Shown here piece by piece: positions 31,971 to 60,431 of a stretch of DNA of 64,000 nucleotides; the stretch's first letter is position 1, and the number at the start of each line of letters is the position of its first letter. The stretch covers positions 32,497 through 96,496 of IMG/VR virus record IMGVR_UViG_3300028176_000002; one strand, given 5' to 3'. The notes under the pieces were generated by a model. The model was given only the letters and a program-made list of their open reading frames with translations. It searched no databases and had not been told where the DNA came from. Position numbers and translations under genes: made by a program. This DNA comes from a virus.

Positions 31971-32645
31971 TTAGTCTTGTTTTAAATAATCTAACAATGA
32001 ATCTGCTACAATTCGTGTAACCTGTGCAATACCTTCTGGGTCTAAACCGTCTAGGCATTGAGCACCGCATAATACTGCTGCTGCTGCATTTAATGCATTA
32101 CCTTTTTGAATCTGTGCGGTTTTTTCTGGAGTATCATAGCCACCAGATTTAGGTTTCCACTGTTTCTTAACCGGATTCTTTTTATTGCAAGGAAAACATT
32201 TAGTATATTTATCATCTTTTAATGCTACACCGCAGTCAACACATTTCGGACCGATTTCTGGACCGGGTGCATCTAATGCGGTGTTATTTTCTGCTGGTGC
32301 AGCTTTTGCTGCGATGTTACATTCATAACATTTTTTAAATTTACCATCTTTTAATTCTTTTCCACATTTTTCACATGCATATCCAGTCGTGGATGGTTTT
32401 GGTGCTTCTTGTTTAACTGGTTCAGGTGCTTTTTGGGCAACTGGAGCAGCATTAACTGTTCCACGAATATCAGAAACCTTTTTAATCTTTCCGTTTAATT
32501 CATAGACGACAACAACTTCAGCACCCTTTTCATATTTAGCTAAAATTGATGTGTCCGCACAATTAAACCAACCTTCTTGACCTGTAACCATAAAACCTTT
32601 CCCATTTCCTGCTTTGACTTGAATTGTACCCTTTAATTCTAACAT
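31971..32645 (-). CDS. Putative ssDNA-binding protein with two Zn ribbons
   Basis: Beta-rich N-terminus and a duplicated CxxCG..LKD.K..KCxxCN unit; lies between exonuclease and primase. Confidence 0.4.
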   Translation of the reverse strand: MLELKGTIQVKAGNGKGFMVTGQEGWFNCADTSILAKYEKGAEVVVVYELNGKIKKVSDIRGTVNAAPVAQKAPEPVKQEAPKPSTTGYACEKCGKELKDGKFKKCYECNIAAKAAPAENNTALDAPGPEIGPKCVDCGVALKDDKYTKCFPCNKKNPVKKQWKPKSGGYDTPEKTAQIQKGNALNAAAAVLCGAQCLDGLDPEGIAQVTRIVADSLLDYLKQD

Positions 32646-42898: not shown

Positions 42899-43564
42899 TT
42901 ATTCAACATACTTTTTCTTTAATCCTTGCAAAATTTGTTTTACTCTTTGTTTTGTAACCCCAATTATACGAGCTATTTCTGTCTGTTTTATGTTACCATT
43001 TTCCTGAAATAAATTTATTATTTTTATTTCATTTTCATTCAAATTTTCGAACATATCTGTAAAATTCTCATCTGCCACGGATTTTTCCTGTGGAATATCA
43101 TCAATTAAAGATTTCTCTTTTCCTGTGTCATCAACTACATTCATTGAGTTAAATTTTAGGTAATTAAAGAATTTATTTTTCCTAGCGAATTTTGGTGTCC
43201 AATTCCAAATCGCAGCGAATAAATATGTTTCAAAAGATTCTGTCGGTTTATATTTTTTAAGAATTCTAATTACCTCAATTGCAAGTTCTTGTTCAACATC
43301 TTCTAATTCTGTCTGCTTAGTATCTACTAATCTAAAATTATGTTCATACACCGGAGTTTTCTTTCCGTCTAATGCTTTAATATGCCCTGTAAGTTTTCCT
43401 TCGTGAAAAGTTTTCTGATAATAAACAAAAGAAGCTTTCTGTTTTAAAATATGTTTTAATAATTTAAATATCTTAACTAAAATAGTCTTATCTTTAGTTT
43501 CAATATATTCTTTGGCTAGTCTGTCTAATTCAGGATTCATTCGAGTATATCCTCCGGCATACAT
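42899..43564 (-). CDS. Sigma70-family-like factor
   Basis: Region-2-like EDVEQE...KY....SFETY and region-4 HTH QTEIARIIGVTKQRVKQI. Confidence 0.75.
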   Translation of the reverse strand: MYAGGYTRMNPELDRLAKEYIETKDKTILVKIFKLLKHILKQKASFVYYQKTFHEGKLTGHIKALDGKKTPVYEHNFRLVDTKQTELEDVEQELAIEVIRILKKYKPTESFETYLFAAIWNWTPKFARKNKFFNYLKFNSMNVVDDTGKEKSLIDDIPQEKSVADENFTDMFENLNENEIKIINLFQENGNIKQTEIARIIGVTKQRVKQILQGLKKKYVE

Positions 43565-50171: not shown

Positions 50172-51037
50172 CTATTTATGTAACCTATAACTTTCCCTTA
50201 ATTTTTTATTCTCGTTAAAATCTATTGCACAAATCAAATTGTTATCGTGGTCTTGCCATAATTTTTCTGTATCAAATAAATCTACACATTTATCGCATAA
50301 TTCCAAATCTCTATCTTGATTAAACCATTCTCCACATTCTAAACATTTACATCTAGCCATTTAATCCCTCGCTTTCTTATAATATTACTTCTGTTTCTAA
50401 ATTAAATTCTTTACCACCCATAAACCCCATAGCCCGATTCTTTTCGGTTTTAAAATATGGTTCATCTTCATAAATAAATGCTTGTCCTATATGCAAATCT
50501 TTAAATAATATCTTTTTCATTTCTCACTCTCCTTTATTCTCTGTTTCGCTTCTATATATATCGGAATCAACAATAATCTTAAATCCATTTCGCTATGATT
50601 AATTTCCCACCATACTTTTTCCTCGCCAACTTTCTCAATATCCCTAATCATACTCGATATAAGCATATTGTCTATTTGTTCATTCATACCCTCTGTTTCG
50701 TTCTTGATTTCTTCTTTTTCTTGGTCTGCCAAATAGTCTGCTGATTGTTCAAAAAGCATAGCCCCACCACATAATTCGCAATTATCATTTTCCATAAGTT
50801 CTGATTCCATAACTGCTTTTGTATATCCACAATGGCTACATTTTATTATCATTTAATTTCTCCTACTAATACCGGCTTATCTTCTTTTATAATATACTCG
50901 TCTATTACCACCTTTAGCCCGGTCAAAACAAACTCATTTCTCTTGTCCTCTGCCACTTCCAAACTTTGAGTATCTAAAATATGTATCTTCTTATGCTCTG
51001 ATTCTAAAACCAAACTCAATTCATACCAAGTATTCAT
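50172..51037 (-). CDS. Small hypothetical genes, two with Zn ribbons (50172-50360, 50517-50852, 50849-51037)
   Basis: CxxC pairs; co-oriented. Confidence 0.55.
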
Positions 51038-51280
51038 TTTAGTTCTCCTTTCTTGATAATAATTGTTCTTTCTTCTTCTAAAATCTTCAAAAATAAGGAT
51101 TCCGGCTTAGATTTTTCTTCTATTTCCGCCTTCACCTGCTTGAAAAAATTTTTTTCACGCAAAACACGGGTAAAATAAGAAAATAAAATTTCTGCGGGTC
51201 GGGCTAATAAATTAAAAATTTTCTTAATTTCGCCCTTCACCCCGCCAAAAAATAATAAAAATTTTTTAGTCTTCACCAAA

Positions 51281-51526
51281 TTAGAATTCATTTTCATTTT
51301 CCTCATTAACTTTCTTCATATAAGCCCGGCTACCTTTAGTTCCCTTTTCAACCTCAAACCTACTAGGCACATAATTGCCCCAATAATCCCTATGCCCCTT
51401 TAATCCAAGCATACAATAACCATTCTCTATCATATCCATAGCATATCTTCCTACACTACCCTCTAATCGCCAAGCATTACCATTATTGATTAACTTTTGG
51501 CACTCTCTTATCTCTGTTTTAGTCAT
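51281..51526 (-). CDS. 81-aa early protein, copy A
   Basis: LINNGNAWRLEGSVGRYAMDMIENGYC; AGGAG RBS. Confidence 0.75.
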   Translation of the reverse strand: MTKTEIRECQKLINNGNAWRLEGSVGRYAMDMIENGYCMLGLKGHRDYWGNYVPSRFEVEKGTKGSRAYMKKVNEENENEF

Positions 51527-52769: not shown

Positions 52770-53369
52770 TTATATATAGAGTATTAACTCTTTCTGTTTC
52801 GTTTCTTTTCTTAAATAGTCCAATAGGAATTGCAACCCAACATTCGCTACAATTGAATTTCCTAATTGTATATTTTTTTCTAAAATATCTTCTTTTCTTT
52901 GACAAGAACCTTTTAAATTATTTTCGGTAGTCAAATTGATATACTTATTATCTATATCCAATTCCTTTGATGTTAAATAAGCAAAAATTGATTTCCCATT
53001 CGCCCTTAAATCTAATAAAGGTTTCCCGGATTCTAAAGCGATTAATCTTGTCGTATTATTATCCACACACAAAACTATCAAATCATACCCGGATAACTGC
53101 CCGGGATTCTCTATTTTGTCGTGGATTGCCTTATACCCGGTCAAATCTGACATTACATCTGCCTTATTCAACCCTAAATGCTCAATATCATAGGTTGTAT
53201 ATGATAAATTTTTCTCCTCTACTATATCCATATCGAATAAATCTATCCCCATAACATTGATTCTATCAAGCCCGGATATATCCTTTTTAATTAACTCGGA
53301 TAATCCCCGGGTAAAATAAGAGCCGATTCCCCCTTGCCCTACGATTGCGATTTTTAAATTATCTTTCAT
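52770..53369 (-). CDS. ThiF/MoeB/E1-like adenylating enzyme
   Basis: IVGQGGIG, DMDIVEEKNL, NKA, CVDN..R, GSCQ. Confidence 0.9.
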   Translation of the reverse strand: MKDNLKIAIVGQGGIGSYFTRGLSELIKKDISGLDRINVMGIDLFDMDIVEEKNLSYTTYDIEHLGLNKADVMSDLTGYKAIHDKIENPGQLSGYDLIVLCVDNNTTRLIALESGKPLLDLRANGKSIFAYLTSKELDIDNKYINLTTENNLKGSCQRKEDILEKNIQLGNSIVANVGLQFLLDYLRKETKQKELILYI

Positions 53370-53456
53370 TTTAAAATCTCCTTATAATTTTATAAAGCCG
53401 GGGTAGAGTTTTGTTTCTTTCGGTAAACCCTACCCATTCCCGGGTAATGGGATAGT

Positions 53457-53651
53457 TTAGCCACCAATTAAACTATCCGTAACTACAATTTCTCTAGGCA
53501 TTTCCGTAATTCCGTCTAAAGTAACCTCGCTGACAAAATTTCCGTCTGCGAAAACAAACTTGTCCTTTAGGTTCACTTTTTCTTTTAATTCTGCGATTGT
53601 TTCTACTGCTAATTCTGTATGCCCACTCTCGTCTAATACTATTACTTTCAT
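53457..53651 (-). CDS. Ubiquitin-like (beta-grasp) protein
   Basis: 64 aa, beta-beta-alpha-beta pattern, ends ...SLIGG*; directly upstream of the E1-like gene. Confidence 0.75.
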   Translation of the reverse strand: MKVIVLDESGHTELAVETIAELKEKVNLKDKFVFADGNFVSEVTLDGITEMPREIVVTDSLIGG

Positions 53652-53693
53652 TTTATCCCCCTTTCTAGTTAAGCCCTCTAATCTTTATAAGCA

Positions 53694-53722
53694 AGTATAA
53701 CATATTTTCCGGGCTTTGTCAA
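53694..53722 (-). promoter_or_regulatory. Sigma70-type early promoter
   Basis: TTGACA-17-TATACT with TG extension. Confidence 0.85.
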
Positions 53723-53741
53723 GCCCCGGATAAAATATATT

Positions 53742-53891
53742 TTAATCTAAACTTCCCCCGGCTAGAAAAAATGCCTTTCTATAAGCCACCCGGGTTTTCC
53801 AATTGTCTAAATTTTCTATCGCTGTCCAAATTACTTTACTGCCGGATTGTTCGATTTTTTCTTTCATTAAATCTAAATCAATTTCTTCCAT
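53742..53891 (-). CDS. 49-aa hypothetical protein
   Basis: Manual translation MEEIDLDLMKEKIEQSGSKVIWTAIE...; resembles the C-terminus of 50517-50852. Confidence 0.55.
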   Translation of the reverse strand: MEEIDLDLMKEKIEQSGSKVIWTAIENLDNWKTRVAYRKAFFLAGGSLD

Positions 53892-53904
53892 AATTTCCCC
53901 CTTT

Positions 53905-55566
53905 TTAATGTATCGTATATATCTGTTCTCTTAAATTTCCGTCATTTAACATACATATACAAAACTGCAATAATTTATCAAACTTACATAAGTATTTCCC
54001 CTCTTTAGTTTTCTCCTCGATACATACATAATCGTTTGCCGGAAAAGTCCAAACTCCGCAATTTTCTTCGTCTTTCATTTTTACCAAATAATTTTTTAAT
54101 TTTCCTTTAACAATATATCCACCCTCTTTTTTAAATACTCGGGTTTTATTCTTCTCTAAAAATTCATTGAATAAATTTTCGGCTCTTTCTTCTGCTAATC
54201 TTCGTTTTTCTACATATCCTTGAATCTTACCAATTAAAATATCCTCTAATATCTTCCCGGCTTTTAATGTATCACAAATCCCGGATATAGAACTTAATCC
54301 ACCACCTCGCAAATCATATGATAATGTTTTAATATCTTTATATCCTCTTTTTACTGAAAAAGTATCAATGTTTACTTGCCAATTTTCCTTATCTTCTGCG
54401 GTAAAATTAAAGTTTATAGGTATGCTCAACCCATTTAATTTAATCTCTATGGTCTTACCCTCTAACAATTCCAATTGTGTGCCGGAGAATAGCCGGATTT
54501 TCTCTAAATAGTCCTCTAAGTTCGTCAATCTATGTATTAAAGTATTTTTATCTGTGCCACTCCACCTACCACCCCGGATAAATTCTATTGCTTTTCGCAT
54601 TTTTTGAATAGGTATCTTTATTCCATTTATAGTAAATCTTGATTTTCCCTTATCATTAACTTTGTTTTCTATCCTTACTTCTTTTAAAAATACTTCTGCT
54701 TTTGTTTCCGGGTCATAAGAATAAACTTTAAATCTTAACCACTTTTTAGGTAAATTTTCTAATTGTTTTTCAATCGGTTCGTCATATTTTCCACATTGAT
54801 AACACCTCTCTAAATCATTTAAAAAATCTTCATATCCTATTTCGATAAATTTCCCGGAATATACGCTATCTCTGACTAATTGTTCTTTCTTAAAAATATT
54901 TACTACTTTATCCCGGAATTCAATTTTAAAACCACTATCTTTATCAATAAAATAATTATCCTTAATTATCGTTCCCTTATCTTCTAATATGGTCATTTTA
55001 TCATACTGCCGGATTAAAGATTCTAATTTTTCTTCTTCTTCATTACCTTTAATTTTCTCTTGCTTTTCTTGATTCTCGATTTCTTTTTCTTCTGCCTGTA
55101 TCTGTGCAATTCTATTTTTAATTTTAACTAAATCTTCATTGAAAATTAAACTACAATCTAATTTATCTATATCTGCAATCGCTTTTAAATTCATACCTAC
55201 CTTATCTTTATAGTTTTCAAAATTTATTATTTCTGTGTCGGTTATAATAAGGTCATTATAAAAATATAACTTTGATTTTTCGTGATTATAATAACCTTTG
55301 TTTTCGTCAAAAGTAACTGCTCTCCCGGTATCTAAATAATTATATATCGCTGATTCACTTGTAACCATATATAAGGTTCTTCCCATACAAAAAACCCGGG
55401 TATTCTGGTCATATTGAAAAACCTTTAATCTTAAACTATCGCTACTATCTTTTATATCCTCTTGCTTAAAAAAATCCGGCTCTAAAACTTCCTTACCTAA
55501 ATTTATTTTCTGCCATATCCTTAAATAAGTGGTTTCTGTGTTCTCTATCGTATATGTTCTAATCAT
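53905..55566 (-). CDS. 553-aa early protein with Cys-containing C-terminal domain
   Basis: Long ORF with its own promoter; C-terminus IVKGKLKNY...VCI...DKLL...LND. Confidence 0.75.
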   Translation of the reverse strand: MIRTYTIENTETTYLRIWQKINLGKEVLEPDFFKQEDIKDSSDSLRLKVFQYDQNTRVFCMGRTLYMVTSESAIYNYLDTGRAVTFDENKGYYNHEKSKLYFYNDLIITDTEIINFENYKDKVGMNLKAIADIDKLDCSLIFNEDLVKIKNRIAQIQAEEKEIENQEKQEKIKGNEEEEKLESLIRQYDKMTILEDKGTIIKDNYFIDKDSGFKIEFRDKVVNIFKKEQLVRDSVYSGKFIEIGYEDFLNDLERCYQCGKYDEPIEKQLENLPKKWLRFKVYSYDPETKAEVFLKEVRIENKVNDKGKSRFTINGIKIPIQKMRKAIEFIRGGRWSGTDKNTLIHRLTNLEDYLEKIRLFSGTQLELLEGKTIEIKLNGLSIPINFNFTAEDKENWQVNIDTFSVKRGYKDIKTLSYDLRGGGLSSISGICDTLKAGKILEDILIGKIQGYVEKRRLAEERAENLFNEFLEKNKTRVFKKEGGYIVKGKLKNYLVKMKDEENCGVWTFPANDYVCIEEKTKEGKYLCKFDKLLQFCICMLNDGNLREQIYTIH

Positions 55567-55593
55567 TTTTAAATCTCCTTTTGTTTATAGTTA

Positions 55594-55622
55594 AGTATAA
55601 CATTTTATTTTCCTTTTGTCAA
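55594..55622 (-). promoter_or_regulatory. Sigma70-type early promoter
   Basis: TTGACA-17-TATACT. Confidence 0.85.
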
Positions 55623-55895
55623 GCCCCGGGCTTTTAATTTTTTTAAGTGTATTTTTAGGTTCTCAATGCTGTGATTATATAACTTGATTCCGTATAGGCT
55701 ACATTCCGGGTCAAGTCTTAATATTTCGTCTACTAGGGGCTTTTTGGCTAGGTCTATCACTTCTTTTTCTGCAATCTGCCCCTTTAGGTCTTTAATTTCC
55801 CTTTTAATCTCTTTCCGGGCTTTACTCTTAGCCGGAAAGTCTTTAATTGATTTCCTTAGTCTTCTGATTTCCTTGCGGATTTCATTCTCGGTCAT
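55605..55895 (-). CDS. Basic helical hypothetical protein
   Basis: ORF with GAGG RBS. Confidence 0.6.
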   Translation of the reverse strand: MTENEIRKEIRRLRKSIKDFPAKSKARKEIKREIKDLKGQIAEKEVIDLAKKPLVDEILRLDPECSLYGIKLYNHSIENLKIHLKKLKARGLTKGK

Positions 55896-56042
55896 TCTAA
55901 CACCTCAATAGGTTTTACCAAAATATCCTTTACACCTCTTAACCTTAAATCATTTATATAGGTCAATGCTTGTCTATAACTCGCCCCGGATATATAAACT
56001 CTTTCTGCTTGAGTAACTCTCCAATTCTTTTTTAAATAAATT

Positions 56043-56288
56043 TTAGAATTCATTTTCATTTTCCTCATTAACTTTCTTCATATAATCCCGGCTACCTTTA
56101 GTTCCCTTTTCCACCTCAAACCTACTAGGCACATAACCACCATAAGCATTTCTTTGCCCCTTTAGTCCAAGCATACAATAGCCATTCTCTATCATATCCA
56201 TAGCATATCTTCCTACACTACCCTCTAATCGCCAAGCATTACCATTATTGATTAACTTTTGGCACTCTCTTATCTCTGTTTTAGTCAT
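56043..56288 (-). CDS. 81-aa early protein, copy B
   Basis: Paralogue of 51281-51526. Confidence 0.75.
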   Translation of the reverse strand: MTKTEIRECQKLINNGNAWRLEGSVGRYAMDMIENGYCMLGLKGQRNAYGGYVPSRFEVEKGTKGSRDYMKKVNEENENEF

Positions 56289-56391
56289 TTTATACTCCTT
56301 TAGTAATGTTATTCAAATCCCAAATCTTTATACAAGAAAACTCTCTTTCTGTAACTCTTTCTGCGATAAACAAATCACTTCCACAATCGCA

Positions 56392-56580
56392 TTATATCCC
56401 CCTTAATATAACCCCGGATTCACTTAAATATCCCCGGATTATCAAACTATTAACAAACTTCCCAAATCCTAAATCCCAAACCTTGCCGGATTTCAATAGG
56501 TAACTAAATAATTCTAACACCTCTTGCCCTCTTAAAGTTCCGGCTTTATACTTGTCAATGGATTCCAATTCGTTAATCAT
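56392..56580 (-). CDS. Small early protein (paralogue of 56926-57207)
   Basis: LFSYLLKSG..W.L......LI..GY.SESG.IL. Confidence 0.65.
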   Translation of the reverse strand: MINELESIDKYKAGTLRGQEVLELFSYLLKSGKVWDLGFGKFVNSLIIRGYLSESGVILRGI

Positions 56581-56680
56581 TATATACCCGTAATATATTG
56601 TTCCATTGATAAAGGTTCTAAATCTTGCCCGGCTCTTGATTCGTTCTCTACTGCTAACCCTCTGTAAATATTAGCTAAAA

Positions 56681-56929
56681 TTAAATCCCACATTTTACAC
56701 CCCCCTCGGTTAAAAATTCTAATTCATTCGTTAATGGATTAAATAATCTTTTTGTATAATGTTTTTCACTCCAATTTTTACCACTCTCGGCTACAATTAA
56801 AAATTTTCCGTCTTTTTGTTTATAAACCTTAAAACTTTTTAATGATTGCCCGGCAAACTTCATATTGTTTTTACTAAAAAAATAAGGTTCTGTTTCTTTA
56901 GTTCTTTCTTTTATCTCATATATGGTCAT
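56681..56929 (-). CDS. Small early hypothetical protein
   Basis: YFFSK..MKF.GQ motif; packed in the operon. Confidence 0.6.
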   Translation of the reverse strand: MTIYEIKERTKETEPYFFSKNNMKFAGQSLKSFKVYKQKDGKFLIVAESGKNWSEKHYTKRLFNPLTNELEFLTEGGVKCGI

Positions 56930-57207
56930 TTTTCCACCTCGTCAAATTCTTTTAAAATCTCCCCGGAATCTGATATATAGCCGGATTCTATTAAAGCCCT
57001 TGCGGTTCGCTGATAACTGCCTTGTAACCCGGCAATTATATTGCTTTTTACCAATTCACTAAATAAAACTAATATATCATTTTCCTTTAACTCCCCGGAT
57101 TCATAAGCGATTATATTCCCGGTAAAATCGTAAAACTTTGCTTTTTCTTTTTTCACTTTATCCCCCTTTTTTATCTTTCCTTTTATATCCATAATAAATA
57201 CTAACAT
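56926..57207 (-). CDS. Small early protein (likely GTG start 57156)
   Basis: YESGEL...LFSELVKS...LQGSYQRTARALIESGY. Confidence 0.65.
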   Translation of the reverse strand: MLVFIMDIKGKIKKGDKVKKEKAKFYDFTGNIIAYESGELKENDILVLFSELVKSNIIAGLQGSYQRTARALIESGYISDSGEILKEFDEVEK

Positions 57208-57226
57208 ATTTTCCGGGCTTTGTCAA
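57198..57226 (-). promoter_or_regulatory. Sigma70-type early promoter
   Basis: TTGACA-17-TAGTAT; 27 bp identical to the promoter region at 53700-53726. Confidence 0.7.
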
Positions 57227-57235
57227 GCCCTCTGT

Positions 57236-57475
57236 CTAAAATAATTTTATCCTTTTTTCCAAATTATACAAAGCCCATAATGGTTGTAAATTCGTGTAAT
57301 GAAAACATAGGGCTTGTTCTCCCGGCTCACTTAAATTAAAGGAATTACAGGGCTTTATATGGTCAATATGCCACTCGGTCAAGCCCTTGCCATTATCCCC
57401 CTTAACCCCAATATCTCCATTTACTTTTGCTTTATACATTTTTACCCCCTTTTTGATTACTCTTGCCGATTTCAT
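57236..57475 (-). pseudogene. Chimeric ORF carrying only the C-terminal fragment of the NLQPLW HNH family
   Basis: WHIDHIKPC...PGEQALCFHYTNLQPLWAL, closest to 42269-42841. Confidence 0.65.
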
Positions 57476-58478
57476 AGGATAACCGGCAACCCTTAACCCC
57501 TAAAATCTTTTTATCAATGTATTTTATATCCCGGAATAAACAAACTACCTTAAAGCCATTATTCCCGGATATTCCAAAATATCCCAATTTTTTAACATAT
57601 ACTAGAATTTCATTAAAATTTTTCCCGGAATCTTTTAAATTTTTCGGGTCTTTTTCAAAATCGTAAATCTTGCCCGGTTCGATTTCCGCAATATAAACAT
57701 ATTTCGCCCCGGCTAAAAAATTTTCCTTGCCCTTACCTATATAAAAAAAACTCCGGGCTAAATTCGATTCCCGGATTGATTCCTTAGTATAATGATTCTT
57801 GCCAAAATAACCCGGCTCAATTTTACCCTTAAAATCTTGATTGCTATAATGATATAATTTAATCTTTTTGGTATTATCCCCGGCATATAGCGAAAATGCC
57901 CGGGCTATTGCCGGGCTTAATACTTCCGGGCTATGCTCTAGGGCTATTGCCGGGCTTAATACTTCCGGGCTATGCTCTAGGGCTATTGCCGGGCTTAATA
58001 CTTCCGGGCTAGATTCGCCGGCAAAATCAAAAACTTTTTGCCCTTGCAAAATTTTATCCCTTGCGAAAGAATCACAATTTATTTCACGAGTTAAATTATC
58101 ATAACCCGTAAAATTTTCTTGATGTTTTAGTAAATAGTGCCCGATTTCGTGATATATAACAAACAAAAGATATTTTCTAATCCCTTTTATTTTTGCCGGG
58201 ATATATCTACCTTGTGGTAATAACCCGGGATTCTTATATATATTGATTATTTGTTTTATATTTATATCTAATTGCCAATCGTAATTTTCCGCCCGGCTTA
58301 TACTCCGCCGGCTCGATAATTTTGTATTATTATCCCCGGATTCATAATCGTATAATCTAACTTTTAAAATTTTAGGTAATTCTTTTTTATGTCTTAAAAT
58401 AAAATCGGTTATATACCTATATAATCGGGGATATTCTTTTTTTACTAGATTAGATTCTTTATTATTGAATTTTATCAT
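57432..58478 (-). CDS. Two-domain early protein: HExxH metallopeptidase-like plus possible ADP-ribosyltransferase-like domain
   Basis: HEIGH...E..CD.FA; repeat linker; LYHYS...SFFY...GYFG. Confidence 0.5.
   Translation of the reverse strand: MIKFNNKESNLVKKEYPRLYRYITDFILRHKKELPKILKVRLYDYESGDNNTKLSSRRSISRAENYDWQLDINIKQIINIYKNPGLLPQGRYIPAKIKGIRKYLLFVIYHEIGHYLLKHQENFTGYDNLTREINCDSFARDKILQGQKVFDFAGESSPEVLSPAIALEHSPEVLSPAIALEHSPEVLSPAIARAFSLYAGDNTKKIKLYHYSNQDFKGKIEPGYFGKNHYTKESIRESNLARSFFYIGKGKENFLAGAKYVYIAEIEPGKIYDFEKDPKNLKDSGKNFNEILVYVKKLGYFGISGNNGFKVVCLFRDIKYIDKKILGVKGCRLSYEIGKSNQKGGKNV
57902..58011. repeat. 39-bp tandem repeat, ~3 copies, in frame (SPEVLSPAIALEH)
   Basis: Unit gggctattgccgggcttaatacttccgggctatgctcta. 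Confidence 0.9.
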
Positions 58479-58479
58479 T

Positions 58480-59238
58480 TTATAACCCCTTTATAAATGC
58501 TTTTTTATAACAAAATTTTCTAAAACTTGTCCTATATAGCGGTTTTGATTCTATTATTTTTTCAATACTTCTTTTTTCTTTTAATTCTTGCCTTGTTTTA
58601 GGTAAATCTAGTTCGGTTTTTTCTAATGTTAAATGTAATGCTTTTAAATTAAAACTGCTTATTTTATACCCCATATCAATTTTTACTTTAGTTTTATGCC
58701 CAAATATAGCAATTTCTAAAACCTTGCCAATTGTTTTAGAATTCCCAATTGTTACAATATCATTTATTTTAATCATTTTATCCCCCTAAATATTGGTAAA
58801 AATTTCTATATAATATCTTCCATTATCCCGGTATATTGTAAGCCCGGAATTTTCTTTTAAATCCGCTTTAATCGTATTTTTTAAATCTTCTTTTTTAACT
58901 TCCTTAATGATTCTATGCGGTAAAATTACTATTTTATCCCGGGAATAATAAACATAACCTACATTCCCAATTTTATAAAATATGCAATCTTGCGTTTTTC
59001 CATTAGTTTTAATCTGTTTTAATAAATCAAGGTAATTATAAAAATTCGATTGATAATAAATCCCCTCAATTGATTGATTATATTCCCGGCAATCAATTAA
59101 ATCGGATTCAATCTTCCCGGATTCATTAGCCCATAATCCCCGGGCTAGATTCTGTTTTCCGTATTTTCTTTTATTTACCGGGATAAAAACTACGATTTTT
59201 TGATTCAATCCTTTTGTATTCATAAGTAATAATAACAT
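58480..59238 (-). CDS. First two early genes (58480-58776, 58786-59238), hypothetical
   Basis: Co-oriented ORFs downstream of a promoter. Confidence 0.6.
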
Positions 59239-59257
59239 TTATTTTTATAAAAATCAA
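59229..59257 (-). promoter_or_regulatory. Sigma70-type promoter at the start of the early region
   Basis: TTGATT-17-TATTAT with TG extension; the ATG at 59223 would be roughly leaderless. Confidence 0.55.
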
Positions 59258-60431
59258 GGGCTAGAGATAAAATATTTTTTATGCTATAACCTATTGAATA
59301 ACAATCATTTATAACAATTGATTATAACTATTTTATAACTATTTTATTTTATTACATAAACAATTGCAATCATTAAGGTTATAAAACCCGGTCAATTGGT
59401 TAAGTAAAGCATTGAATCGGGATTCCCGGCACTATGCCCGGCACGATTCCCGGGATAATCTAAAGAAATAAAATCAATCTAATCGGTCAAAATAGATTGA
59501 TTATAATTGAGTAATTGCCCGGGATTATTCCCGGCTAACTGAATAATAAAAAGCATTTAATTGATTAAAATAAAATCAAGATAATCATTTAAAATAAAAG
59601 CCGGATAATTGATTAAACTAATGTAAACAAGAGTAAAAATAAAATTGATTTAATGAGGTAATTTAAAAAACAGGCAAAGCCCAAATTCCCGGGCTACCTT
59701 GCCCGGATTATCTTTTATCTATACAATAAAAGCCCATTGATTATCAATTGATTATCATAAGTTATTGCAATTACTAGAGATACGGCAGGGTTAAATTTAG
59801 CAATTAAAACGATTAAAAAAAATTGCCGGTAGACTGTGTGCGGATTCCCAGAAATCATTTTTCCTAAATTCAGCCCCAATAAAAAATATAAAATCAATCA
59901 CACCATCATGTTACATTAATTCGCCATCATACATCTCCATAATTGGTCAATTCTCCCCCCGATATTATTATTAATTATCCTGTTTTTGTTTTAAATCGTT
60001 GATATCATTAATGTTATATTTAGTTTTGACAATTCCAGTGTCAACTTCCCAGCAAGTTCCCGGTAAAACAATCAATTTTAGGTGTTTTTTCGGTGTTGTA
60101 AGTCGTTGTGCTGCAATATGTTATTCGGCAGCCCCCGGCATGTTATTTTTAGCAAAAAGGAGTGTCAAGATACAGGACAGTGTGTCTAATATATTAAACA
60201 CATGTCTATTATATTAGACTTATATATCTATCCAAATTTTTAGAGATATGCTATATTTTTCTTCAAAATCTTATATATCGGGTACGATTATTAAAGAATT
60301 AGCGGAATTTCTTCATTAAACGATTCTATTATTAAAGTTTATGCTAGATAGGGTCTAATTACTAATTAAATACTACTGAATACTATTCCAGTATTACATC
60401 TACGTCATTGCTATCATTAATTTTAGGTCAA

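Follow-up and report, generated by a model that had tools for sequence, protein, structure and literature searches.

A predicted E1-E2-ubiquitin-like conjugation cassette encoded by an uncultured virus

Ubiquitin-like conjugation in prokaryotes has been characterised in cells, where Bil, the type II cyclic oligonucleotide-based antiphage signalling system (CBASS) and probably Bub act in anti-phage defence. Does a virus also carry machinery of this kind? The question is raised by a short interval in a stretch of viral DNA 64,000 nucleotides long (IMG/VR record IMGVR_UViG_3300028176_000002, positions 32,497 to 96,496; hereafter the window), in which a small ubiquitin-like protein (Ubl) ending in Gly-Gly (GG) is followed by an enzyme of the ThiF/E1 type. 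The record is a complete viral genome of 96,496 bp with direct terminal repeats, and the window is its final 64 kb. Here, we describe the gene set of this locus, the conserved residues of its products, their predicted folds and the conserved linkage of the genes, all of which we observed. We consider it rather probable that the locus is a phage-encoded, self-contained E1-E2-Ubl conjugation cascade that is expressed early.

A glycine-ended tag, its E1-like enzyme and an E2-like neighbour

The open reading frame (ORF) of the Ubl (53457..53651, minus strand) has a GGGGGA ribosome-binding site ahead of it and encodes 64 amino acids (aa) ending in SLIGG-stop. The stop codon directly follows G64, leaving the GG exposed at the C-terminus. 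A homology search returned 57 proteins with 69–94% identity. In an alignment of 22 rows, made up of 20 of these 57 homologues, the window protein and the protein of locus L004, residues L61, G63 and G64 are invariant. The AlphaFold2 model has a predicted local distance difference test (pLDDT) score of 79 and shows the element order β-β-α-β-β-β. The best Foldseek matches were ubiquitin and NEDD8, and a wide structure search ranked Urm1, RnfH, TtuB and MoaD highest. The fold-search scores are modest, as expected at 64 residues, but the match lists are coherent, and we accept the 64-aa protein as a predicted β-grasp fold.

The E1-like adenylyltransferase (52770..53369, minus strand) is 199 aa long. 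It matches Pfam ThiF (PF00899) over residues 4–110 with an E-value of 1.2e-7 and a score of 31.5 bits, above the gathering cut-off of 28.1 bits. The motifs of the family are readily recognised, including G11xGGIG, D46xD48xVE51EKN54, K69, D103-N104...R108 and GSC156Q. It contains just two cysteines, C101 and C156, and thus neither a CxxC pair nor a CxxC zinc site; no rhodanese domain was found in it. The best NCBIfam row is PRTRC_ThiF (TIGR03736), at 38 bits against a cut-off of 144.75 that is not reached, with ThiF models next. Searched against the sequences of solved structures, the E1 profile matched MccB best (E 0.003). Within the PADLOC defence library, the sole matches were to generic E1-E2 and JAB models, the E1-E2 models covering E1 residues 4–76 with an E-value of 9e-6. 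A protein search gave 86 relatives of the E1, and 160 loci were gathered by scanning IMG/VR and species-representative genomes for it. Among the 53 distinct E1s that are linked to the module described here, K69, D103, R108, D120, R122 and C156 are invariant in all 53, and the glycine-rich loop and DxDxVEE are near-invariant. Judged from its sequence, the adenylation machinery is intact, and C156 (of the SCQ motif; codon 52902-52904) is strongly constrained.

The sequence-only reading of this DNA, made before the present analysis, had placed a TTGACA-17-TATACT promoter, a 64-aa ORF ending in GG and a ThiF/E1 ORF here, and all three are present at those positions on the minus strand. Its account of the E1, with intact adenylation motifs, a GSCQ cysteine and no CxxC pair, agrees with the PF00899 match and with the two cysteines found, and the β-grasp fold on which its case depended is borne out by the predicted structure and the fold searches. 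It had also recognised no E2. This part did not stand, as an E2-like domain is encoded in the next gene upstream, outside the interval that the earlier reading covered.

That gene (53905..55566, minus strand) is the immediate upstream neighbour of the Ubl-E1 interval and has the same type of promoter. It encodes a 553-aa protein, hereafter E2L, in which residues 1–440 form several β-rich domains and residues ~450–553 a predicted E2/RWD-like domain. The C-terminal domain (residues 450–553) is encoded by 53908..54219 on the minus strand, with the codon of the candidate catalytic Cys515 at 54022-54024. The AlphaFold2 model has a pLDDT of 83 overall and ~87 over residues 441–553, and it shows a helix (437–472), four strands (477–508), Cys515 and then helices (521–540). 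C515 therefore sits in a loop, seven residues past strand 4 (503–508) and ahead of the helices. It is the one conserved cysteine of the family, aligned in 43 of 45 sequences and one column off in the other two. In a structure search, ~35 of the best 50 rows were UBC, RWD or UEV chains matching residues ~450–553; the matches are weak (Z ≤ 5.1) and include bacterial CdnG-E2, BubB and an E1-E2-Ubl complex.

Conservation is also uneven along E2L, with 78% identity in the C-terminal domain against 56–62% in the N-terminal part; for comparison, the Ubl, at 71–82% identity, is better conserved than the E1 at 60%. E2L is homologous to a ~440-aa partner of the E1 in marine viruses (hhalign probability 97%, E 5.5e-11, over the C-terminal 250 residues). 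A full HMMER scan brought up just 32 relatives among 1.84 billion representative proteins. Pfam, NCBIfam, PHROGs and PADLOC all left the 553-aa protein unassigned, PHROGs also gave no family for the E1 or the Ubl, and ESM Atlas queries returned only unnamed clusters below 0.9. The best match of the E2-like profile among PDB sequences was Cas13b (6dtd, E 2.6e-4), which we judged spurious because the matched stretch does not contain the cysteine. Taken from the models, the evidence that residues ~450–553 are an E2-like domain fused to substrate-side domains is supportive but not conclusive.

Linkage of the module and the presence of a JAB peptidase

We next consider how constantly these genes travel together, with linkage counted by hidden Markov model scans of six-frame translations of the loci. 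Of the 81 viral loci, 50 contain both the E2-like protein and the E1. In ~41 marine viral loci, it is the ~440-aa relative of E2L that precedes the E1, while ORF clustering places the E2L family with the E1 in the window and in L002, L003, L004, L015, L028 and L052. The family also stands beside the E1 in nine contigs of metagenome-assembled genomes (MAGs), namely L087-L092, L094, L095 and, weakly, L098, whose titles name Planctomycetota, Micrarchaeota, Methanoperedens/Methanosarcinales, Methanomassiliicoccaceae, Clostridia and Thalassarchaeum. The Ubl/JAB/E1 part is also found on contigs of marine group II and related archaea (L097-L100, L111). The E2L-E1 module occurs in several gene orders, and a GG-type partner is present wherever the flank is long enough.

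In ~41 IMG/VR loci (L005-L043 and others, for example L005:2968-3828), the E2-like gene and the E1 are separated by a gene whose product has a TFIIB-type zinc ribbon and a helix-turn-helix. These loci are probably from archaeal viruses, and the same E1 family is found on marine group II MAG contigs L097-L099. In the Methanoperedens/Methanosarcinales group (L089-L094, with one contig as long as 640 kb), three genes follow each other in a row, namely those of the E2-like protein, the E1 and a protein that ends in ATATHKGKGG; the short contig L093 is without an E2-like match.

The ends of the GG partners fall into two kinds. Some stop at the GG: LIGG-stop in the clade of the window, (I/L)GG-stop in L028 and L095, MGG-stop in L092, the related ends KAKGG, KIKGG and KSKGG in L087, L088 and L096, and ...KGKGG-stop, directly after the E1, in L089-L091, L093 and L094. 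Others carry a tail after the GG, which is a single residue in L004 (GGN), four in L052 (GGAAQE), two in the marine group, and VGGL in the marine group II archaeal contigs. In L015, the GG is followed by a fused domain of ~195 aa; there (L015:2680-3501), the Ubl domain ends in ..LLKGG and runs into this domain in a manner that resembles a ubiquitin fusion, and the JAB gene comes directly after.

Every relative with a tail after the GG also has a JAB, recognised by the exact motif HxHx7Sx2D in the marine group and, for L004, L015 and L052, by Prok-JAB matches that exceed the cut-off. Conversely, no JAB was found anywhere in the three genomes of the window clade (the window and two close relatives) or in the fetched flanks of L028, L087-L091, L094 and L095, all of which are GG-terminal. 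Tail and JAB are not strictly equivalent, however: a JAB accompanies every tail, but L092 has both a terminal GG and a JAB. Such a pattern would follow from a JAB that matures a precursor and a GG that is the reactive end, and it gives the strongest indirect support for a Ubl-type activation. The complete 96,496-bp genome was also searched for rhodanese (PF00581), MoaE (PF02391), ThiG (PF05690) and PP-loop ATPase (PF01171), and none was found.

Several claims of the sequence-only reading can be placed here. That neither a JAB nor a sulfur-relay partner is encoded, which it had said of the window, extends to the complete genome. Its proposal that the mature GG end needs no processing is in keeping with the ready-made GG occurring where JAB is absent, and the conservation of the GG and of its link to the E1, on which it had also staked its case, is seen in the invariant G63 and G64 of the 22-row alignment and in the GG partners beside the E1 loci.

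A tblastn search of the E1 against 50,697 GenBank phage records gave no match, and neither did a blastn search of the region against GenBank phages. The cassette is therefore so far known only from uncultured viruses.

Promoters and genomic setting

The window has a G+C content of ~30%, and its genes from 0 to 60 kb lie nearly all on the minus strand. The cassette is found in a region of short ORFs upstream of the replication genes and far from the virion genes. The genome encodes a CHAP domain, and a 221-aa ORF (42899-43564, minus strand) has a weak match to sigma-70 region 2 (E 1.1e-5, below the cut-off); it may encode a phage sigma factor that serves later genes. The CHAP domain, this sigma-70-like gene and the promoters of sigma-70 type described below lead us to regard the virus as a bacteriophage that relies on host polymerase for its early genes, and an archaeal host for the window virus was rejected on the same three grounds. 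These features and the terminally redundant record agree with the phage assignment made earlier from the letters. Between the DNA polymerase of the phage and that of any isolate, identity is only ~22%.

The promoter of the Ubl-E1 pair (53722..53694, minus strand) reads TTGACA-17-TATACT with a TG-extended -10 element. Its flanks, GGGCTTGACAAA and ATGTTATACTT, are common to the promoter of the E2-like gene (55594..55622, minus strand), which reads GGGCTTGACAAA ... TG-TTATACT (again TTGACA-17-TATACT) and is followed by an AAGGAG ribosome-binding site. The 12-mer GGGCTTGACAAA spans the -35 box and has three exact copies in the window, all on the minus strand, at 53.7, 55.6 and 57.2 kb, where 0.16 are expected; none of 100 shuffles reached three. 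The element ATGTTATACTT at the -10 position is shared by the 53.7- and 55.6-kb copies. The third copy (57198-57230, minus strand) has TTGACA-17-TAGTAT, lies just upstream of a 93-aa ORF (56926..57207) and is probably a member of the same early promoter family. Taken as a whole, promoter-like sites show no excess in the window (78 against 66.9 ± 8.1). From their sequences, the GGGCTTGACAAA sites seem to form a small set of promoters of the host (sigma-70) type among the short ORFs upstream of the replication genes.

Between the Ubl and E1 genes is a spacer of 87 nt (53370..53456, minus strand) with an 11-bp hairpin (minimum free energy -22.6 kcal/mol, z -1.93) that has no T-run after it. The hairpin may be a partial terminator or a stabiliser that sets the ratio of tag to enzyme, lowering the E1 relative to the tag. 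Between the E2-like and Ubl genes is a 49-aa ORF (53742..53891, minus strand), kept in the close relatives L002 and L003 (ORF cluster 95: window, L002 and L003). It ends in ..FFLAGGSLD, with an internal GG near the C-terminus.

The surroundings of the cassette have some further features. The density of CCGG is 12.2/kb at 53000-60150 of the window against 1.5/kb at 1-51000, despite the AT-rich DNA, and many of the copies are GC-rich palindromes around promoters, such as GGGCTTGACAAAGCCC, with the -35 box in the loop. A block of two genes is duplicated in the early region (51034-51526 and 55892-56288, minus strand). It contains two 81-aa ORFs whose N-terminal halves are nearly identical (MTKTEIRECQKLINNGNAW...), each overlapping a next ORF that starts with MRKMKMNS. 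Further upstream, a 348-aa ORF (57432-58478, minus strand) has three tandem SPEVLSPAIA(L/R) repeats and a HEIGH metalloprotease-like motif.

The proposed cascade, its rivals and the known systems

We propose the following course of events. Host RNA polymerase would transcribe the cassette from the two matching sigma-70-type promoters of the early region. The 64-aa β-grasp protein would be made with a free GG end, which the 199-aa E1-like enzyme would adenylate, probably then holding the tag as a thioester on Cys156. Cys515, in the E2-like domain at the C-terminus of E2L, would then take over the tag. Substrate choice would fall to the N-terminal domains of E2L, which are large and evolve faster, so that E2L would act as a combined E2/E3, and the tag would end up on an amino group of its target, a protein of the host or the phage. 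In the relatives, a precursor of the tag would be trimmed by the JAB, which possibly also removes the tag from its targets. The lineage of the window would have dropped both the tail and the peptidase, and no phage enzyme, we therefore propose, would be able to take its marks off again. More tentatively, and as something we hold short of probable, tailed viruses of bacteria and archaea may carry a complete writer of Ubl marks (a GG-ended tag, a minimal E1 and an E2 to which substrate-recognition domains are joined), with which they would, as infection begins, mark host proteins or forestall tagging by the host. The sequence-only reading had proposed two such roles, in which proteins of host or phage would be tagged right after entry or host Ubl-based defence would be jammed.

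Several points weigh against this cascade. We infer the chemistry of each step, as well as the early timing and the presence of any targets; the timing is read from promoter type and gene position, and C156, which the sequence-only reading had likened in position to the crossover-loop cysteine of MoeB/E1, is a candidate thioester cysteine by virtue of its invariance. For the E2-like domain, a Foldseek search of the whole 553-aa model against the PDB returned only noise, and no Pfam E2 family (UQ_con, Prok-E2) matched at E ≤ 1 for the protein or 0.1 for the family. The sole Pfam signal of the family is a weak match to DUF7737, in 9 of 22 members, and no HPN-type motif precedes C515 in the alignment of 45 sequences. 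Furthermore, triads of JAB, E1 and Ubl also carry out sulfur transfer in some bacteria (PMC1779556).

The weak fold scores of the E2-like domain (Z ≤ 5.1), its lack of a Pfam E2 match and the invariant cysteine of the E1 would suit a minimal, E2-independent system, in which the E1 alone transfers the Ubl, as in archaeal SAMP/UbaA, and the 553-aa protein is a substrate, an adaptor or an unrelated neighbour. We consider this improbable. The 553-aa family adjoins the E1 family across very distant viruses and MAG contigs in several gene orders, its best-conserved part is the very C-terminal domain with the conserved cysteine, the fold matches are almost all E2, UEV or RWD chains, and a co-inherited cysteine domain would be left without an explanation. 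A two-gene, E2-less system was what the sequence-only reading had pictured, and it gives way to one with a 553-aa, probably E2-like partner that keeps its cysteine and is co-inherited across viral and MAG loci; because of this partner, SAMP/UbaA, which had been offered as the analogy, is not the best one. It is more doubtful still that the Ubl is a sulfur carrier, adenylated and converted to a thiocarboxylate that gives sulfur for the modification of a nucleic acid, cofactor or metabolite, with the cysteines as a persulfide relay. Urm1, TtuB and MoaD are indeed among the structural neighbours of the Ubl, ThiF models follow PRTRC among the NCBIfam rows of the E1, and the sulfur-transferring triads have the same components (PMC1779556). 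However, the complete genome is without rhodanese, MoaE, ThiG and PP-loop ATPase, the E1 has neither a rhodanese domain nor a CxxC zinc site, and the constant partner models as an E2-like fold and not as a sulfur transferase.

A further alternative concerns the purpose of conjugation and is a special case of it. The cassette could disturb host immunity of the Bil or type II CBASS kind, either by capping lysines on phage structural proteins beforehand or by tagging host enzymes and so disabling them. Its place in the early region under host-type promoters and the fast evolution of the substrate-side domains of the 553-aa protein would fit, and host Ubl systems are described as targeting phage tail proteins (PMC11601596). 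However, archaeal-type viruses and contigs also have the module, although neither Bil nor CBASS is documented there, and we regard counter-defence as the purpose as unlikely. The least likely of the alternatives, in our view, dispenses with conjugation altogether. The GG protein would then be either a Ubl with a part in virion structure or assembly, as the lambda tail assembly protein I is, or a protein whose C-terminus is modified by MccB-like chemistry. Ubl domains are known from the tail assembly of phages (PMC1779556), and MccB is the best solved-structure sequence match of the E1 profile (E 0.003). Against this, the cassette lies among early and replication genes, far from those of the virion, the 64-aa protein is a predicted folded β-grasp and not a short peptide, the 199-aa E1 is without an MccB-type peptide-clamp domain, and the E2-like partner would have no explanation.

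If the conjugation cascade proposed here is correct, phages and archaeal viruses would also write ubiquitin-like marks. On the more tentative reading above, conjugation of this kind in prokaryotes would be a two-sided weapon, and E1-E2-Ubl machinery of very compact form would have a reservoir in viruses. The cascade would also provide biochemistry with a very small system, with a tag of 64 aa, an E1 of 199 aa and an E2 domain of ~100 aa. The relatives would provide a natural experiment on the gain and loss of reversibility, as some have a precursor and a JAB and others a ready-made GG without one. Our literature search found no paper on a phage-encoded E1-E2-Ubl set; a comparative review of jumbo phages (PMC7824862) does not use the terms Ubl, JAB, ThiF, E1-like or E2-like, and a preprint on Asgard viruses reports viral E1 homologues only.

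Known systems share many of the components. Bil, found in bacterial anti-phage operons, consists of the Ubl BilA, the E2 BilB, the JAB BilC and the E1 BilD (PMC11601596). Like it, the cassette has separate Ubl, E2-type and E1-type proteins, a glycine end on the Ubl, a JAB in most of its relatives and an expected cysteine thioester chemistry. Unlike the host-encoded Bil, it is encoded by a virus, and its E1 is a single 199-aa adenylation domain, whereas that of Bil is of the form IAD-AAD-CYS (PMC11601596). The E2-like domain of the cassette is the tail of a 553-aa multidomain protein without a sequence-family match, and its lineage is without a JAB. Prokaryotic operons of E1, E2, JAB and Ubl on mobile elements, types 6a-6e, were described by Iyer, Burroughs and Aravind in 2006 (PMC1779556). 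These operons, the PRTRC ThiF cassette included, have the same component set, which comprises a rhodanese-free E1-like protein, a divergent E2-like protein that keeps the Cys without the classical His, a glycine-ended β-grasp protein and a JAB. However, their E1 is typically fused or adjacent to a JAB, whereas the E1 of the cassette stands alone in a lineage without one. They are carried by plasmids and integrative conjugative elements and the cassette by tailed viruses, and the fusion of the E2-like domain to large N-terminal domains sets the cassette apart from them.

Type II CBASS, through Cap2 and Cap3, also has an E1-type adenylation domain, an E2-type cysteine and a JAB trimming enzyme. 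It differs in that Cap2 is an E2-E1 fusion, whereas the cassette has separate E1 and E2 genes and no JAB in its lineage, and in that its substrate is a signalling enzyme and that of the cassette a dedicated Ubl. No CD-NTase turned up with the cassette, though no search was aimed at one. Bub (formerly "6E"; PMC11601596) is likewise a divergent prokaryotic set of E1, E2 and Ubl, and the structures that the E2-like domain matches best include a chain of 9eav (BubCD-BubB-BubA). Its differences from the cassette are that the E1 of the cassette is unfused, and that this E1 and the E2-like domain both keep a conserved cysteine. The SAMP/UbaA and ThiS/MoaD-ThiF/MoeB systems pair a small GG-ended β-grasp protein with a compact ThiF-type E1, as the cassette does. 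They work without an E2 and are connected to partners in sulfur transfer, whereas the cassette has an E2-like partner and no sulfur-relay gene. The cassette thus shares its component set with the known mobile-element operons, Bil, type II CBASS and Bub, but departs from the defining features of each.

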